Assembly: GCA_964497435.1 (NCBI GenBank)
Contig: CAZCCD010000004.1
Coordinates: 14,501-23,588 of the forward strand
From: Candidatus Woesearchaeota archaeon
GTDB lineage: Archaea > Nanobdellota > Nanobdellia > Pacearchaeales > GW2011-AR1
Direction: 5' to 3'
DNA length: 9,088 bases
Below, one piece after another: positions 134 through 7,552 of this stretch. A program made the position numbers and the translations under genes. Each line of letters starts with the position of its first letter. The first letter of the stretch is position 1. The notes under the pieces were generated by a model. That model made no database searches, was not told the origin of the DNA, and was given only the letters and a program-made list of their open reading frames with translations.

Positions 134-3100
134 CTATTTTTTCTTCTCTTCCACTTTTAGTTGGAGCTTAAACCCAACCATCTTCTTGATTTCTTCAACA
201 CACTTTGGGTTTAAAAGAGTCATTAAACCAGCTGGCTCTTCGTTGCTTAATATGCTTTTAAGAATTCTCCTCATTATTTTCCCTGAACGAGTTTTAGGGA
301 GATCATTAACAAAATAAACTTTTTGAGGCCTTGATGTAGGGCCTAGAGTCTTGTCAACATGGTGTTTTATTTCTTGTTCTAACTTTTCTGAAGGTTTTCC
401 GCTTTTTAACACAACAAAGGCAATAGGAGTCTGGCCCTTTATTGGATCTGGAATAGGGACAACTGCAGATTCATTTACAAATTTACTACTATCTATTGAA
501 TTTTCAAGTTCTGCTGTTGATAATCTATGGCCTGCGACTTTCATTACATCATCTGTTCTTCCAGTTATTCTAAAATAACTTTCTTTCATTACTGCTCCAT
601 CACTAGTATCATATTTTCCTTTAAATGTTTTCCAGTATGTTTCTACATATTTTTCATGGTTGTTATAAACTCCATGCAGCATTCCTGGAGCGAAGGGCGA
701 GAGTTGAACTAAAAATCCTTGGGAAGATTTTTTTCCATTTTTATCTAGGATTGTATGTCTTGTTCCTGGGAAGGATTTTCCAGCAACTGTTGGAATAAAA
801 GGACCAATGCCAGGAAGAGTGTTTATAATAGTGCCTCCTGTTTCTGTCTGCCACCACGTGTCTAGTATAGGACATTTACTCTTTCCAATATTTTTGAAAT
901 ACCACATCCACGCTTTTTCATCTATTGGCTCTCCAACTGTCCCGAGAATTCTTAATGAATTTAATTTGTGTTTCTTTAGATATTTTTCACCCCATTTCAT
1001 GAACATTCTTATTGCTGTAGGTGCTGTATAAAAAACAGAAACTTTGTATTTATCTATGATTTGCCACCATCTTGAAGGATTTGGAAAATCAGGAGTTCCT
1101 TCGTAAATTAGAGTTGTTGCTCCATTTAACAATGGGCCGTAAAAAGCGTATGTATGCCCTGTAATCCAGCCAATGTCAGCTGTGCACCACATAATATCAG
1201 AGTCTTTAATATCGAAAACCCATTTTGCTGTTAGATAAGCTTGGACAGCATATCCTCCTGTATCATGGACAATTCCTTTTGGTTTGCCAGTTGTATTGTG
1301 TGTAATAATTCCATTGACAATATAATTATGATTTTTTTCGGCTGTTAAATCATAAACAAAATCATATTCGTTATCTATTTTTTCTATTTCTAAAATTTTT
1401 TCTAGAATAGCATTTTTAAACTCTAATAATTTTTGAATTTTTTTTCTAATTATCTTTAATTTTTCTAATTTTTCTTTATTAGTTTCTGTTTCAATTTTGT
1501 TATCTAAAAATTCTTTAATTATTTTTAACCCTTTTTTATCAGTTTGATTGCTATGAACAAATTTGGTGATTTTGCTAAAATCCCCTTTCCAATCTACTTT
1601 AATAGTTTTTGTAATTTCTTTTAGAAGAGAAAATAAAGGAAATCTATCTTTTGAAAATATTTTTTTTGAAGATAATTTCTCCACTAAACTATTAAGCTTC
1701 ATTTTTTTAGCTTGATCCGAAAATCCAATTTCTTTATGAAATCTATTTAAGGATTCTCTCTCGGAAATTATGACATCTAAATAAGGAGTTTCTTTTATAA
1801 CTCTATTTCTGATTTTTCTTTCTTTGTTTATTCCATGATATACTTTAGCGATTATACCAAATCTTCTCATTAATAATTGAGAAATTCTAATCAATTCTTC
1901 ACTTGTACTTGATAATTTAATAAAAGAGTGTCCAATTGTTCCTTCTGCATCGTATAATCCTCTTAAAAACCCAGCAATACATTCTTTCTCACTTTTTTGA
2001 ATAATTTTTGGAATGTCTCTCTTATTGCTTATAGTTGCAATTTCAGGAAAATTTTCTATTATATAATTTCTAAATAAAGAACTATTAACTAGTAATCTTA
2101 ATCTTTCACTCTTTTTTCTTATATTACTTTTTACATTTAATTCTTTCAAAATTAAATTTTTGTAAGATTCTAAATTAGATATGTCCTTATCTGTAAAGAT
2201 AATGCTTCTTTTATCTAAGTGTCCATCTCCAACAAAATATCCTAAGATTTGAGCAAATTCAGAAGTTAGAAAATTCGGAATTTCTGGAATATTTTCTGGT
2301 TTATAAGTTGTTTTATTTCCATATTCTTTTTTTTCTTTTAGTTTTGGAAGTGTTTGTTTTTCTCCTTTTATATTTATGCTAGATATAACAAATATTTTAT
2401 TATTATTTAATAAATTTTTAACTTCTTTTTCAATTAGATTTCCATATTCATCTAGACTAAATAATCTGTGATTTGGAGTAAAAATAGCCTCGAATGAGGG
2501 TGTTCTTATCTTATATAAAACAGAGTTATTGGGATATTTATGAAGGTTTGTGATGTTATCTTCCATTTGTACTAAAGGATTAGAATGCATATTGACTATT
2601 TTCGGCTTAATATTTTTCTCAACTATTTCTTTTATTTTTACAATTTCTCCGTTTACTAATTGTATTAAAGAATTTGGATGACAACAGCCACTAGTATAAA
2701 GAATAAACATTGGATCTTCAGAGTTTATTATTTCTGGCTTGCAATATGTAGAGCCTTTTTCTAAAAAAGAATTAAAGTTAGTAAATTTACCAGAATAATT
2801 TCTTTTTTTATTCAATCTTGAGACAACAATAACATGTTTTATAGTTGTGCCTTTTATTGCTTTTTTTGCCTTGCTTAATAAATTTTCTTTTTCCCCTCTT
2901 CTATAATATCCATCACAAGTTATAAGGACATTTGCCTTGCAATCTTCAATTCTAGCTTTTAACGCGTCTGTTGCGAATGCAGAGAAAACAACAGAATGAA
3001 TAGCTCCAAGTCTTGTGCATGCTAGCATTGCAACTAAAGCTTCTGGAACTAAAGGAAGATAAATAGAGACAGCTTCGCCTTTTTTTACTCCAAGATCTTT

Positions 3101-3478
3101 AAGAGAGTTTGCGAATTTATTTACTTTCTCATATAATTCTCCGTAAGTTAGAATTACTGGTTTTTCATTTATAGGTTCAGGAATCCAGATTAAAGCTGGT
3201 TTGTTTGGATTTTTTAAGTGCCTATCTAAAGCATTGACGCAGAAATTTAATTTTCCTCCTTTAAACCACTCGAAGTAGGGGAGTTTTTCAACGTAAGTGT
3301 TTTTTTCTTCCCACAATTTTTCCCAGACAATGCACTCTTTTGCCTGTTCATTCCAAAACTTTACAGGAGCTTTTTCAGCTTGAGAATAAACACTAGGATT
3401 GTTTATCCAAGCTATTTTTTTCATTTCATTGCTTGGCCAGAATTTATTGCCCTTTTTTACGACGTAAGACATTTTCAC
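134..3478 (-). CDS. acs: Acetyl-CoA synthetase (AMP-forming, ANL superfamily) interrupted by an in-frame intein; predicted spliced product about 650 aa
   Basis: The 1114-aa ORF has Acs-typical N-terminal (WFKGGKLNFCVNALDRHL), core (DTWWQTETGG) and C-terminal (LPKTRSGKIMRRILK, carrying the catalytic/acetylatable Lys) motifs. The A3 motif YTSG...TTGKPKG is split by 464 aa. The track start at 3478 is GTG and lies inside a GAGGTGA Shine-Dalgarno-like sequence. The ATG two codons downstream (start at 3472, MSYVV...) is therefore the more likely initiation codon. Confidence 0.9.
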   Translation of the reverse strand: MKMSYVVKKGNKFWPSNEMKKIAWINNPSVYSQAEKAPVKFWNEQAKECIVWEKLWEEKNTYVEKLPYFEWFKGGKLNFCVNALDRHLKNPNKPALIWIPEPINEKPVILTYGELYEKVNKFANSLKDLGVKKGEAVSIYLPLVPEALVAMLACTRLGAIHSVVFSAFATDALKARIEDCKANVLITCDGYYRRGEKENLLSKAKKAIKGTTIKHVIVVSRLNKKRNYSGKFTNFNSFLEKGSTYCKPEIINSEDPMFILYTSGCCHPNSLIQLVNGEIVKIKEIVEKNIKPKIVNMHSNPLVQMEDNITNLHKYPNNSVLYKIRTPSFEAIFTPNHRLFSLDEYGNLIEKEVKNLLNNNKIFVISSINIKGEKQTLPKLKEKKEYGNKTTYKPENIPEIPNFLTSEFAQILGYFVGDGHLDKRSIIFTDKDISNLESYKNLILKELNVKSNIRKKSERLRLLVNSSLFRNYIIENFPEIATISNKRDIPKIIQKSEKECIAGFLRGLYDAEGTIGHSFIKLSSTSEELIRISQLLMRRFGIIAKVYHGINKERKIRNRVIKETPYLDVIISERESLNRFHKEIGFSDQAKKMKLNSLVEKLSSKKIFSKDRFPLFSLLKEITKTIKVDWKGDFSKITKFVHSNQTDKKGLKIIKEFLDNKIETETNKEKLEKLKIIRKKIQKLLEFKNAILEKILEIEKIDNEYDFVYDLTAEKNHNYIVNGIITHNTTGKPKGIVHDTGGYAVQAYLTAKWVFDIKDSDIMWCTADIGWITGHTYAFYGPLLNGATTLIYEGTPDFPNPSRWWQIIDKYKVSVFYTAPTAIRMFMKWGEKYLKKHKLNSLRILGTVGEPIDEKAWMWYFKNIGKSKCPILDTWWQTETGGTIINTLPGIGPFIPTVAGKSFPGTRHTILDKNGKKSSQGFLVQLSPFAPGMLHGVYNNHEKYVETYWKTFKGKYDTSDGAVMKESYFRITGRTDDVMKVAGHRLSTAELENSIDSSKFVNESAVVPIPDPIKGQTPIAFVVLKSGKPSEKLEQEIKHHVDKTLGPTSRPQKVYFVNDLPKTRSGKIMRRILKSILSNEEPAGLMTLLNPKCVEEIKKMVGFKLQLKVEEKKK
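1295..2686 (-). mobile_element. Intein (464 aa) with a LAGLIDADG homing-endonuclease domain, inserted in the Acs phosphate-binding loop
   Basis: The junctions read YTSG|CCHPNS... and ...NGIITHN|TTGKPKG, giving Cys1, a penultimate His, a terminal Asn and Thr+1. Block B TxxH is present (TPNH). The two LAGLIDADG motifs are LGYFVGDGHL and IAGFLRGLYDAEGTI. Block F/G is DFVYDLTAEKNHNYIVNGIITHN. Removing it restores the canonical YTSGTTGKPKG. Hand counts of sample 60-nt lines give about 15% GC inside the intein (lines 1441, 2101) versus about 42% in the exteins (lines 1141, 3001). Confidence 0.88.
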
Positions 3479-4720: not shown

Positions 4721-5875
4721 ATGGGGTTTGATTTTATTGTTCTTGGAGCTACGGGCATACAAGGGAGAATTGTTACTCGAGATCTATTGGAAAATGGTTA
4801 TAGTGTTTTAATGTGTGGGAGAGATAAATCAAGAATTCTACATTTATTAAAAAAATTTAAAAAAACTTATTTTAAGTATATTGAAGCAAGAAAAATATCT
4901 ACAATTGTTAATGCTATTAAAAATTCTAAATCAAATATAGTTATTAATTGTATAGAAGGAAATTGGAATCTTAATGTATTAAACGCATGTCTAAAAACGG
5001 GAGTTCACTCTGTTGATTTAGGATCTGATATTCCAATGACAAAAAAACAATTGGCTAAAGATAAAGTGCTTAAAAAGAAAAACTTAATTCATATAACAGG
5101 AATTGGTTCTGTTCCAGGAATAGGTAATATAATGTTAAGACACATTGTAGATAAGTTTGATAAAATAGATGGAATAGATGTGGGGTTTGCATGGGACTCA
5201 AACATAAAAGAATTTGTCGTTCCTTTTTCAATACAAAGTATAATAGAAGAATTTACTGCTCCTGCCCCATTTATTCATCATAAAAAAATAGTTAAAATAA
5301 AACCACTTAACTCAATTGTTAAGTGTTATCATAGGGCTATTGGAAAAGAGAAACAGTTCAATGTTGGTCATCATCCAGAAACCTATACTTTTTATAGCTA
5401 TTGTAAAAATAAAGGAATAGAAAATGTTAGATTTTTTGCAGGCTTTCCAGACCACTCTTTTGAAAAAATAAATAGCATGATACAATTAGGTTTTGGAAGT
5501 AAAAAAGAAATTAATTTTAAAGGAAAAAAAACAAAACCCATAGAATTTCTTACAGAAGTAATGAAAAGAATAAAGATGCCAAAAGGATATACTGAAACAG
5601 AAAACCTTTGGGTTGAAATATCGGGAAGAAAGAACAATAAAAAAAAGAAAATTCTTATGGAGTGCATTGCGCCAACATTAAAAGGTTGGGAAGATGCTGG
5701 ATGCAACATTGATACAGGAATGCCAGCAAGTATTCTAGCCCAAATGATAAAAAAAGGAGTTATTAATCAATCAGGAAGTTATTCACCAGAATACATAGTG
5801 TCGCCAGAACCATTTTTTAAGGAACTAAGAAAAAGAGAAATGGTTGTTCTGGAGAATGGAAAGAGGATAAATTGA
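4721..5875 (+). CDS. Saccharopine dehydrogenase-family NAD(P)-dependent oxidoreductase (paralog 1, 384 aa)
   Basis: There is an N-terminal Rossmann motif (VLGATGIQGRIV) and a central ITGIGSVPGIGNIM motif resembling the G-x-x-PG-x-x-N signature of the SDH / carboxynorspermidine dehydrogenase family. A TATA-like TTTTAAATA lies about 24 nt upstream, suggesting a leaderless mRNA. The specific substrate cannot be assigned. Confidence 0.7.
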   Translation: MGFDFIVLGATGIQGRIVTRDLLENGYSVLMCGRDKSRILHLLKKFKKTYFKYIEARKISTIVNAIKNSKSNIVINCIEGNWNLNVLNACLKTGVHSVDLGSDIPMTKKQLAKDKVLKKKNLIHITGIGSVPGIGNIMLRHIVDKFDKIDGIDVGFAWDSNIKEFVVPFSIQSIIEEFTAPAPFIHHKKIVKIKPLNSIVKCYHRAIGKEKQFNVGHHPETYTFYSYCKNKGIENVRFFAGFPDHSFEKINSMIQLGFGSKKEINFKGKKTKPIEFLTEVMKRIKMPKGYTETENLWVEISGRKNNKKKKILMECIAPTLKGWEDAGCNIDTGMPASILAQMIKKGVINQSGSYSPEYIVSPEPFFKELRKREMVVLENGKRIN

Positions 5876-5876
5876 A

Positions 5877-7049
5877 ATGAAAGTATTGATAATGGGGTAT
5901 GGTTCTGTAGGAAAGGTTTTATCAAAATTATTGTTAAAAGAAAAAAGCATTAAGAGAATAATTTGCTGTGATTTGAACATTAAAGAAAAAAAACATGGAA
6001 AGATTATATTCAAAAAAGTTGATGCTTCTCAAAAAAAGAATTTATTAGATATATTAAAAATAGAAAAACCAGATATTTTAGTTAACGTCCTTATACCGCA
6101 TTTTAATACCATCCTTTTAGAATGCTGTCTTACATCAAAAGTAAATTATATTGATACTGCTTCCTATTGGAACTTTGATACAAATCAAAATTCACAAAGC
6201 CCTTATCTTGTAGAGCAATTAAATTATAACGAAGGCTTCAAAAAAAATAAGATAATTGGTTTAATAAATTCAGGTGCATCTCCTGGGCTAACAAATCTTC
6301 TAGCAAGAGAAGTTTCAGAAAAGCTGAATGAAATTGACTCAATAAAAATTAGGCTTGTTGAAGATACAAGAAGCGACAAACTATATTTTCCCTGGAGCGT
6401 TGAATGGCTTCTTGATGAAATGAATTGGGAGCCTCTCGTATACAGAAAAGGAAAATTTAAGTTGGCTAAGAGATTTTCAGAAGAGGAAGATTTTAATTTT
6501 TTTGAACCATTTGGAGTAAAAAGAACAGTTTTAGTTGGACAAGAAGAAATAGGTACAATACCTCTTTATATAAAATTAAAAAATGCAGATATAAAACTAT
6601 ATGATAGTCAAAGTGAAATTGCCAAATTCTTGTTTAAATTGGGATTAATTTCTGATGATGAAATAAAAATAGACAATGTTGAAATAAACCCCAAAGTATT
6701 TTTATCTAAATTGCTTGAAAAGGACAATAAACACATTCCAGATAAGTGGGAAATAAAGAATGCTCAATTTGGTCTTGCTGTAATTGGTGAAGGTAAAAAA
6801 AATAATAAAAAAAACAGGCTTGTCTATTCTGTTGCTTTTCCAAAAGAAAAAGATATTGACAAATTAAATTTAGGTGCAAACTTTATTTCTTATCCAACTG
6901 CATTAATGTTAAAACTATTTATTCTTGGAATTTCAAAAATAAAAAAATTTGGGGTATTTCCCCCAGAAGGACTTGATAGAAAAATTCGTGAAGAAATTTT
7001 AGAAAGCTTAAAAAAAGAGATGATAAAAATAAAATTTCAGACAATCTAA
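5877..7049 (+). CDS. Saccharopine dehydrogenase-family NAD(P)-dependent oxidoreductase (paralog 2, 390 aa)
   Basis: The motifs are VLIMGYGSVGKV (Rossmann) and NSGASPGLTNLLARE (family signature). The length is typical for the family. The ATG comes 1 nt after the upstream stop, and a GAGGAT SD-like sequence lies inside the upstream gene, so the two genes form an operon. Confidence 0.75.
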   Translation: MKVLIMGYGSVGKVLSKLLLKEKSIKRIICCDLNIKEKKHGKIIFKKVDASQKKNLLDILKIEKPDILVNVLIPHFNTILLECCLTSKVNYIDTASYWNFDTNQNSQSPYLVEQLNYNEGFKKNKIIGLINSGASPGLTNLLAREVSEKLNEIDSIKIRLVEDTRSDKLYFPWSVEWLLDEMNWEPLVYRKGKFKLAKRFSEEEDFNFFEPFGVKRTVLVGQEEIGTIPLYIKLKNADIKLYDSQSEIAKFLFKLGLISDDEIKIDNVEINPKVFLSKLLEKDNKHIPDKWEIKNAQFGLAVIGEGKKNNKKNRLVYSVAFPKEKDIDKLNLGANFISYPTALMLKLFILGISKIKKFGVFPPEGLDRKIREEILESLKKEMIKIKFQTI

Positions 7050-7138
7050 AAAAAGTAAAACTGTTATTTATGAGTTAGTCTAAATACATATCCTTACAAA
7101 GTATTTAAATATTTGTTTTTAAAGAAAATGTAATGGTA

Positions 7139-7263
7139 TTACGCCCCGTCCTACTTGCGACCTTGCTCGTTATTGATTCAGATTGTCTTCGCAAAATCGC
7201 TCGGATTCGAAATTAAACTTTCTGGAGTTACGCGAACCTCTATGCCATTTCCAATGGCATTCA
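7139..7263 (-). other. Conserved structured 3' module A, directly downstream of tRNA-Glu and ending in a repeat of the tRNA 3' acceptor strand
   Basis: Read on the minus strand, the module starts with an 8-bp hairpin ATGCCATT-GGA-AATGGCAT. Next comes the invariant 13-mer GGTTCGCGTAACT (7226-7238), then TTTCGAATCCGA. A stem UUGCGA (7189-7194) / UCGCAA (7155-7160) follows. The module ends in GGACGGGGCGTAA (7139-7151), which matches the tRNA 3' end GGACAGGGCGTGA (7261-7273) at 11 of 13 positions. A GTAATACCATTAC hairpin and a T-run follow. The module is homologous to 8120-8240. Confidence 0.45.
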
Positions 7264-7519
7264 CGCCCTGTCCGAGATTCGAACTCGGGTCACGGCCGTT
7301 CTCTAAGCGCGGTGAAAACCGCGATTTGAAGTTCTTTTGGAACTTCTTTACCTCTCAAAAATTCTCTGAGGCTTAAATAAAAAGCCTGTCCTAAGAGGAC
7401 GCGAGTCATTGTCTCGACGACTATACTCATGCAATTTAATTAAGTTGAGAGGGCCGCATTCCTAGCCTCCCATATAGATTTTACTCCAAAATAGGATTTG
7501 GCCTCTGAACTAACAGGGC
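7264..7519 (-). tRNA. tRNA-Glu (anticodon CUC) with two introns: 36 nt in the D-loop (21/22) and 147 nt at the canonical 37/38 site
   Basis: The exons are 7519-7498, 7461-7446 and 7298-7264. They assemble to a 73-nt cloverleaf: GCCCTGT TA GTTC AGAGGCCAA GAAT G CGGCC CTCTCAC GGCCG TGAC CCGAG TTCGAAT CTCGG ACAGGGC G. Acceptor, anticodon and T stems all pair perfectly. Both introns sit in BHB motifs. Intron 1 has central helix GGCC/GGCU with bulges AA|A and AG|G. Intron 2 has central helix CUCU/AGAG with bulges CA|A and AA|C. No CCA is encoded. Confidence 0.78.
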
Positions 7520-7544: not shown

Positions 7545-7552
7545 TTTATAAA
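7545..7552 (-). promoter_or_regulatory. TATA box for tRNA-Glu
   Basis: TTTATAAA spans -33 to -26 relative to tRNA position 1 (7519), and a purine-rich BRE-like AAAG lies immediately upstream on the minus strand. Confidence 0.45.

Follow-up and report, generated by a model that had tools for sequence, protein, structure and literature searches.

The stretch of DNA analysed here over its full length of 9,088 nucleotides (nt), which we call the window, has a GC content of about 30% and carries on its minus strand, reading from 7519 to 7264, what is confirmed as a genuine tRNA-Glu gene with anticodon CUC, composed of three exons and two introns that are each bounded by a bulge-helix-bulge (BHB) motif. 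The gene begins with GCCCUGU UA GUUC and finishes with CCGAG UUCGAAU CUCGG ACAGGGC G, its acceptor stem being formed by GCCCTGT (7519→7513) and ACAGGGC (7271→7265) and followed by the discriminator G at 7264; within the 8-nt acceptor complement reported in an initial annotation of this DNA, seven pairs make up this stem, but the eighth, C7520·G7264, is fortuitous. The longer of the two introns, at 147 nt, is on sequence comparison a member of a previously undescribed family of long, modular tRNA-Glu(CUC) introns with a conserved RNA module. In the literature that we searched, with subscription journals outside its coverage, neither these introns nor the module are described. The gene and its putative promoter are laid out as follows.

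7545..7552, minus strand: putative archaeal promoter with the TATA-box-like string TTTATAAA, read in the sequence; its 3' edge is 25 nt upstream of the mature 5' end
7498..7519, minus strand: exon 1, with the acceptor 5' strand, U8 and A9, the D-stem 5' strand and the D-loop (GCCCUGUUAGUUCAGAGGCCAA); from the BHB scan, ARAGORN and orthologues
7462..7497, minus strand: intron 1, 36 nt, at the junction of D-loop and D-stem (about 21/22); from the BHB scan and orthologues
7446..7461, minus strand: exon 2, with the D-stem 3' strand, G26, the anticodon-stem 5' strand and loop positions 32-37, CUCUCA (anticodon CUC); from the BHB scan and ARAGORN
7299..7445, minus strand: intron 2, 147 nt, at the canonical 37/38 site; from the BHB scan, ARAGORN, computed folds and orthologous introns at the same site
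7264..7298, minus strand: exon 3, with C38, the anticodon-stem 3' strand, a 4-nt variable loop, the T-arm, the acceptor 3' strand and the discriminator G; from ARAGORN

The exon boundaries come from a geometric scan over all pairs of cut sites for a 4-bp helix with a 3-nt bulge on each strand, cut after the second base of each bulge, and two of its solutions jointly restore a tRNA. The cuts for intron 1 fall after 7498 (5') and after 7462 (3'), and those for intron 2 after 7446 and after 7299, the latter pair matching exactly the 147-nt intron (7299-7445, position 37/38) proposed in the initial annotation. Both motifs pass the geometry test in the scan and in the minimum free energy (MFE) fold, with a 4-bp helix, 3-nt bulges on opposite strands and symmetric cuts. 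At intron 1 a central helix GGCC/GGCU is accompanied by the bulges AA↓A and AG↓G (arrows mark the cuts) and by a 6-bp inner helix, while at intron 2 the anticodon stem serves as the outer helix, the central helix is CUCU/AGAG and the bulges are CA↓A and AA↓C; both motifs are of the relaxed kind, intron 1 having no outer helix and intron 2 no inner helix. When both introns are removed, ARAGORN reads the 73-nt product as tRNA-Glu(CUC) with every cloverleaf stem intact, including a T-arm in exon 3 of CCGAG UUCGAAU CUCGG; the terminal CCA is not encoded. With intron 1 alone removed, ARAGORN reports tRNA-Glu(CUC) with a 147-nt intron. The MFE fold of the 256-mer contains the cloverleaf and both BHBs (z = -5.2), and the 147-nt intron folded alone has z = -3.3. 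The earlier proposal of a two-intron gene at 7264-7519 with a 73-nt cloverleaf is thus the structure on which BHB scan, ARAGORN and orthologues agree.

Standard searches of the raw window pass over this gene. ARAGORN in default mode finds no tRNA in it, and Rfam gives no match either at the gathering threshold or at E<=10; the intron module described below likewise has no Rfam 15 family. ARAGORN in intron mode returns a “tRNA-Ser(gga)” with a 182-nt intron, which is the only alternative exon structure it offers and a poor one, dismissed for its mismatched stems.

Related genomes were compared in two ways. A degenerate pattern for the 3' exon, searched in one genome per species, matched many archaeal tRNAs, among them several tRNA-Glu(CUC) genes of Woese-, Pace- and Nanoarchaeota with lengths of 147-213 nt. 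Directly upstream of the tRNA and in the same orientation is an 83-aa gene (7813-7565, minus strand) with a weak match to EF-Tu domain 2; an alignment of its product was used to fetch 80 metagenome loci, in which the protein is 57-86% identical and in many of which this tRNA follows directly downstream; in dozens of contigs the gene stands ahead of tRNA-Glu(CUC). About 45 orthologous tRNA genes on Woese-, Pace- and Nanoarchaeota contigs were parsed in total (L-numbers below are labels of the related contigs and loci used for comparison). Nearly all have an intron at 37/38, with identical boundaries throughout and lengths of 19-203 nt (median about 98), and the window's intron ranks 38th of 44 by length. 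Its initial description as very long is therefore apt beside the published range for archaeal tRNA introns (11-129 nt, with medians of 12-25 nt; PMC4090602), but within the lineage the intron is unexceptional. Genes for the UUC isoacceptor have short introns or none.

The orthologues also account for how these genes are detected. ARAGORN in intron mode recognises tRNA-Glu(CUC) with introns of 84-203 nt in 12 of the 14 orthologues tested and misses only L139 and L155, the two among them that also have a D-loop intron; the Rfam tRNA model finds the L130 orthologue, intron included, at 46.8 bits. In L139 and L155 the D-loop intron occupies the same site as in the window and has the same central helix, with compensatory changes in the inner helix. 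The exon junctions expected in the window are GGCCAA:GAAUGC and CUCUCA:CGGCCG (colons mark joins), and GUUCAGAGGCCAA:GAAUGC runs uninterrupted in six orthologues that have no D-loop intron (L146, L135, L156, L166, L150 and L130). We regard the gene structure as secure because of the orthologues, the shared D-loop intron of L139 and L155, and the match of the predicted junction to these intron-less sequences. Orthologues additionally have A/T-rich, TATA-like boxes at a comparable upstream distance.

The architecture of the long intron was derived by anchoring the orthologous introns on a common motif and then aligning them. About 35 of the roughly 45 introns contain one module. Its outer stem is called P1 and a second stem P2a; a G-N-N-G-A pentaloop (GAUGA, GUUGA, GGUGA, GAAGA, GUCGA and others) caps P2b, which is apical and 3 bp long, and the adjacent hairpin P3 has the loop UCUCAA, UCUUA or a close variant, UCUYA(A). 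About ten orthologues are without the module. All introns finish in NRGRGNN, the strand that pairs with positions 32-35. In the window the 5' portion of the intron, about 66 nt, is the conserved module, and the 3' portion, about 80 nt, is made up of add-on hairpins that have been gained and lost between lineages. The module is placed as follows.

7375..7440, minus strand: conserved module of the window-type subgroup; from covariance model R3 and covariation in its seed
7429-7425 with 7406-7402, minus strand: P2a; from model R3
7421-7411, minus strand: P2b, with GUC at 7421-7419, pentaloop GUCGA at 7418-7414 and GAC at 7413-7411; from model R3
7400-7388, minus strand: P3, with GUCC at 7400-7397, loop UCUUA at 7396-7392 and GGAC at 7391-7388; from model R3

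Support for these helices comes from covariation among the relatives. In a model-based alignment of all members (35 sequences), 77% of the cells are paired as against at most 55% when the 3' partner is slid, and the covariation score is 0.356 as against at most 0.234; P2b is paired in 99% of cases, and all three of its pairs change on both sides. In the seed of the window-like subtype (eight sequences, with the window excluded) the contrast is sharper, with 89.7% of cells paired versus at most 47% slid, a covariation score of 0.489 versus at most 0.162, and double changes in 12 of 17 pairs. The covariance model built from these eight sequences (R3) matches the window at 7375-7440 with 56.6 bits and an E-value of 3.8e-15, its sole significant match there, and the window intron shows the window-type architecture of P2a, P2b with GNNGA, and P3 with a UCUYA loop, with P1 cut down to about 2 bp. 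A covariance model of homologous introns, which the initial annotation had put forward as a check, therefore recovers the window's intron without having been built from it, and compensatory changes are found among the relatives. The pairing CGAG/CUCG first proposed for the intron's first hairpin gives way to UGAGU/ACUCG (P2a) enclosing GUC-GUCGA-GAC (P2b), as the relatives' covariation indicates.

The commoner of the module's two subtypes is the “main” subtype (GGUGAUC...UCGAUGAGAG...GCAUCUCAAUGC). The main-subtype model finds the intermediates L175, L167 and L165, and R3 in turn finds L167, L175, L179 and L158; because of this cross-detection through intermediates, the two subtypes look related and the window looks like a divergent member. 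A BHB-like reading of the main subtype's 4-bp GAUC/GGUC helix was considered and rejected, since the inner helix is interrupted by a spacer of 4-6 nt and, in the window subtype, the corresponding stem is 6 bp long. Throughout 1.14 Mb of fetched loci, which were picked via tRNA-Glu(CUC) or the neighbouring gene, all matches at E<1e-3 fall within tRNA-Glu(CUC) introns. A search of 12 related loci with Rfam gave tRNA matches and one RT-16 match, and none to the module; the RT-16 RNA match (L174, 2181-2329, plus strand; 65.8 bits, exceeding the gathering score) has no connection with the tRNA.

Downstream of the module, the add-on portion of the window's intron is predicted to form local hairpins.

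7369..7387, minus strand: hairpin AGGCUU-UUUAUUU-AAGCCU, in the MFE and centroid folds, with the T5/TATA-like string in its loop
7351..7371, minus strand: hairpin CCUC...GAGG (CUCA/UGAG in the initial annotation), overlapping the AGGCUU hairpin, its exact pairing ambiguous in the folds
7328..7346, minus strand: hairpin GAAGUUC-CAAAA-GAACUUC, in computed folds
7308..7323, minus strand: hairpin CGCGGU-UUUC-ACCGCG, in computed folds and lineage-specific

The AGGCUU/AAGCCU hairpin competes both with P1 and with the neighbouring CCUC...GAGG hairpin, and in L139 the same position is taken by AGGCAU/AUGCCU, a compensatory change. The CCUC...GAGG hairpin, whose CAGAGAA closely resembles the 3' splice-site strand, has counterparts in GCCUC/GAGGC of L139 and CACCUCU/AGAGGUG of L186. 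In L140 and L141/L144, too, an RAAGUUY/RAACUUY hairpin precedes another hairpin that stands immediately ahead of the 3' splice site, and in L172 the RAAGUUY/RAACUUY hairpin stands elsewhere in the intron. For CGCGGU-UUUC-ACCGCG no sequence homologue was found, other introns having a different GC-rich hairpin in its place. The chain of six local hairpins described initially accordingly stands as a chain, its second, third, fifth and sixth members appearing in computed folds, but the pairing of the first has been revised and the third and fourth overlap; they share 2 nt and therefore cannot both form fully. The T5/TATA-like string is likewise present where it was reported, at 7383→7372 in a hairpin loop, but such strings are commonplace, the 9 kb holding 49 TATA-like octamers and 247 T5 starts.

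Other introns of the family carry elements of their own. Several shorter ones (L135, L146, L149, L156, L158, L162, L165, L169 and L179) have a 5'-terminal AAUGRCRGC...GCYGGCGUUUG hairpin that is not found in the window. A unit of UGARGA, a hairpin and CUGA, resembling box C/D or kink-turn (K-turn) motifs, is present in L159, L175 and L179 (also in L169) and is again not in the window; the L169 intron has a perfect AUGAUGA. Runs of at least five T occur inside the transcribed intron in the window (7379-7383), in L150, L073, L147 and L172, and in many orthologues.

Contrary to the initial statement that the intron has no open reading frame, a 46-codon ATG frame runs on the tRNA strand from 7430 to 7290, through the intron into exon 3. 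Coding potential was nevertheless rejected: the frame has no Pfam match and is not conserved, being interrupted by a stop at codon 19 in the closest homologous intron (L150), where the substitutions are RNA-type compensatory pairs. A viral or mobile origin of the module was rejected as well. Two 15-mers have matches in the virus collection IMG/VR that score at most 21 bits against the model and are due to chance, and the two loci inspected (L210 and L216) are ordinary sequence with no tRNA nearby.

We consider it very probable that the locus serves a low-GC DPANN archaeon, a relative of Woese-, Pace- and Nanoarchaeota, as a working tRNA-Glu(CUC) gene and that its precursor is spliced at the two BHBs; the view that the intron module acts mainly in cis is held more tentatively. 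Transcription would probably start from the TATA box at 7552-7545 and give a precursor of at least 256 nt, which is predicted to fold into the cloverleaf with BHBs at the D-loop/D-stem junction and at 37/38. An archaeal splicing endonuclease would then cut the four 3-nt bulges, and an RNA ligase would join the three exons into the 73-nt tRNA and probably circularise both introns, with predicted circular-intron junctions of ...UUAGAGAA:ACUUAAUU... and ...GGCUAG:AUCCUA.... Ordinary splicing by endonuclease and ligase is the most likely mechanism. In DPANN endonucleases an insert has been connected with broad specificity and with disrupted tRNA genes, and the genomes of these archaea can be expected to conceal such genes (PMC5829648); we infer that splicing takes place in this locus and that an enzyme of this type carries it out. 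Acting in cis, the module would fold a long A/U-rich insert on itself, preventing competition with the exons and keeping the two splice sites close to each other. Such a folding scaffold is the role that we favour for the module, as a tentative preference.

Several observations weigh against this account of a spliced gene with a cis-acting module. The covariance model of the main subtype (R2) leaves the window intron unmatched with filters off and at E<=10, and the window's membership of the module family, as judged from sequence, rests on the window-type subgroup and the intermediates. P1, the stem best suited to bringing the intron ends together, is nearly lost in the window. As both BHBs are relaxed, an endonuclease of broad specificity would be needed, and a splicing endonuclease gene was not seen in the 9,088-nt window. 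Finally, oligo-T can terminate archaeal transcription, and the intronic T5 runs can be regarded as potential terminators; if oligo-T terminates in these archaea as in others, T runs should lower the yield of transcript, yet they are common here.

One alternative to a selected cis role, which we hold to be rather unlikely, is that the intron simply grew by insertion or duplication of hairpin modules, whether through intron transfer or through duplication of splice-site strands, and that its conservation reflects descent and tolerance. The ten-fold spread of length among orthologues, with modules gained and lost as blocks, is what such a history would produce, and the RAAGUUY/RAACUUY and terminal GC hairpins occur in both module subtypes. 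Subtype does not follow similarity of the neighbouring protein, that of L130 being 86% identical and its intron of the other subtype; the two strands of the splice-site helix, UCUC and GAGA, recur several times within the module, and intron transposition is documented in Thermoproteales (PMC4090602). However, the compensatory changes in all four helices show selection on structure and more than plain inheritance, and the occurrence of the module nowhere else in the 1.14 Mb of related loci gives no sign of a dispersed mobile element. Largely neutral gain and loss of modules explains the variation in length but not the compensatory changes.

The main rival to a cis role gives the module a function of its own: the excised and probably circular intron would be an independent noncoding RNA or ribonucleoprotein (RNP) that acts in trans, or that guides or assists modification of tRNA-Glu. 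We consider this unlikely, although it draws on several features of the family. The G-N-N-G-A and UCUYA(A) loops are kept in about 35 introns while the stems covary, which goes beyond the needs of pairing; the module is limited to the CUC isoacceptor; tRNA positions 33-37 and the first base of the intron recur in the P3 loop as UCUCAA; and the UGARGA...CUGA pairs of L159, L175 and L179 resemble K-turn or C/D motifs. Against these stand the lack of C/D boxes in the window's intron and of any Rfam match, the identity of the relatives' apparent antisense match UGAGAG with the 3' strand of a covarying stem, and the roughly ten orthologues that do without the module. The related claim that the module represents a new functional class of RNA in tRNA-Glu(CUC) introns, a stable and probably circular RNA or RNP acting beyond its own splicing, for instance in the maturation or modification of tRNA-Glu, is equally doubtful; if true, it would supply a second, structurally unrelated “useful tRNA intron”, a type so far known only from the C/D introns of tRNA-Trp.

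The specific version of this idea in the initial annotation, an embedded C/D small RNA (sRNA), finds no support. The 147-nt intron contains no TGATGA, CTGA or TGANGA, that is, no RUGAUGA C box and no CUGA D box, it has no Rfam match, and its conserved element is a different structure. With no D box there is no register by which a 10-12-nt guide to the tRNA, whose target would pair 5 nt upstream of D or D', could be defined. The string UGAGAG was considered as an antisense guide to the anticodon loop and rejected, since in the relatives it forms the 3' strand of P2b; GAAAG or GAGGU can take its place, with matching changes in the partner strand, whereas the loop remains CUCUCA, and the guide idea therefore fails.

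Splitting of the gene was the second hypothesis raised at the outset. The locus would be a relic or intermediate of a split tRNA-Glu of the kind found in Nanoarchaeum equitans, in which an internal promoter, TTTTTATTTAAG, still drives the 3' half. N. equitans does split its tRNA-Glu, one 3' half serving two 5' halves (PMC4033280), the intron does hold a T5 run followed by a TATA-like string, and partial duplicates of tRNA ends do occur near the locus. We nonetheless judge this reading very improbable: the gene forms one continuous unit both in the window and in each of the roughly 45 orthologues; only local hairpins are found, with no inner helix at the BHB and no long, leader-type duplex between the intron ends; and the TATA-like string, one of the 49 in 9 kb, lies in the loop of a hairpin that L139 has kept, which leaves no distinctive internal promoter. 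Moreover, a second sequenced nanoarchaeote is without split tRNAs, and splitting is seen as specific to N. equitans (PMC4033280). Least probable of all is that the locus is a pseudogene in decay or that tRNA-like pieces have come together by chance. The silence of default tRNA predictors and Rfam and the T5 runs within the transcribed region might speak for this, but it is contradicted by the intact stems of the spliced cloverleaf, the conservation of both BHBs with compensatory changes, the TATA box at the expected distance and the conserved syntenic position of the gene. Overall the initial annotation is partly supported, its structure being right and both of its functional hypotheses unsupported, and a spliced gene, with a module that may act mainly in cis, is the reading that we carry forward.

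The surroundings of the gene have features of their own. Immediately downstream of the tRNA, a GC-rich element at 7135-7263 (minus strand) comprises, in order, a hairpin AUGCCAUU/AAUGGCAU, a T-loop-like UUCGAAUCCGAG and a 10-bp stem GCGAUUUUGC/GCAAGGUCGC, and terminates in GGACGGGGCG, which almost duplicates the 3' end of the tRNA itself. In L164 and L159, tRNA-Glu is likewise followed by a homologous element, the stem showing compensatory changes; in L108 the element follows a different tRNA and ends with the 3' end of that tRNA. More generally, a second copy of the tRNA 3' end is found 60-190 nt downstream in 10 of 53 loci. The downstream element looks like a duplication of the attachment-site (att) type or a small element directed at the 3' ends of tRNAs. 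A third intron, connecting the 3' end of the tRNA with its copy downstream, was considered and rejected, as no credible BHB was found. On the other side, tRNA positions 1-15 are duplicated 53-72 nt upstream of the tRNA-Glu 5' end in L055/L131, L108, L146, L164 and L175; the duplicate is followed by about 50 nt, part of which is common to L146, L164 and L175 (GCACUCACA-GAAA-UGUGAAGCUCGACCUA). Both the upstream 5' duplicate and the downstream 3' duplicate are present in L164.

Further along the window, two tandem paralogous genes on the plus strand (4721-5875 and 5877-7049, 1 base apart) encode saccharopine-dehydrogenase-like proteins, a pair that is also found in L003; homologues of the neighbouring saccharopine-dehydrogenase-like protein come under names like Woesearchaeota and Nanoarchaeota. 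Synteny via the saccharopine-dehydrogenase gene was tried and dropped, as the corresponding slot in L003 and L008 is filled by a class II tRNA and not by tRNA-Glu. These class II-like tRNAs (L003, 4507-4609, minus strand; L008, 11205-11365, minus strand), recognised by a long variable arm, have inserts as well, and the L008 copy, 161 nt long, holds the strings AGAUGAAGA and CUGAU in its insert. An acetyl-CoA-synthetase-like gene with AMP-binding domains (134-3478, minus strand) is split by an intein with a LAGLIDADG homing-endonuclease domain.

The gene is a concrete case of a tRNA gene that would count as “missing” from a DPANN genome. Neither standard predictors nor Rfam detect it, and codon-usage and completeness estimates of such genomes are therefore affected; the covariance model is ready for use in annotating these genes. 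The documented size range of archaeal tRNA introns is extended by the 147 nt found here and by orthologues of up to 203 nt. A covarying structure absent from Rfam additionally offers a testable handle on the old question of whether tRNA introns in archaea have a role or are no more than tolerated.

Known systems resemble this gene in different respects. The pre-tRNA-Glu(UUC) of Methanopyrus kandleri, with a relaxed D-loop intron (20b/21) and a canonical 37/38 intron (PMC5829648), shares the two-intron architecture, and its processing likewise hinges on the substrate range of the endonuclease. It differs in being a UUC and not a CUC tRNA of another phylum with short introns, for which no module or intron of more than 100 nt is described, and its D-loop intron is at 20b/21 whereas the D-arm intron of the window is at 21/22 in our numbering. 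The closest functional analogy is the euryarchaeal pre-tRNA-Trp, whose intron nests a box C/D sRNA (median intron length for tRNA-Trp, 65 nt; PMC4090602); there too, the long 37/38 intron of one tRNA has a conserved structured RNA element. That element, however, has C, D, C' and D' boxes and guides for Cm34 and Um39, none of which the window's intron has. The split tRNA-Glu of N. equitans shares with the window the amino acid, the break at 37/38, the superphylum, and a relaxed BHB processed by the same class of enzyme (PMC4033280), but its halves are separate genes with promoters of their own and long complementary leaders, whereas the window holds one contiguous gene. In the tRNAs of Thermoproteales (Sugahara 2008, Fujishima 2010, reviewed in PMC4090602), several BHB introns at non-canonical positions are found, as are related intron sequences common to several genes; those similar introns are short and spread across many tRNAs and positions, whereas the present family occupies one site in one tRNA and reaches 203 nt. 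Finally, the animal tRNA intronic circular RNAs (tricRNAs; PMC4536317), excised tRNA introns that persist as structured circles, illustrate a possible fate of the module-bearing intron, although they belong to another domain of life and bear no relation in sequence, and the stability of the DPANN intron is hypothetical. Set beside these systems, the gene is of a familiar type, an archaeal tRNA gene interrupted at BHB motifs, and what is unusual about it is the lineage-wide occurrence of very long modular introns with a structured core.

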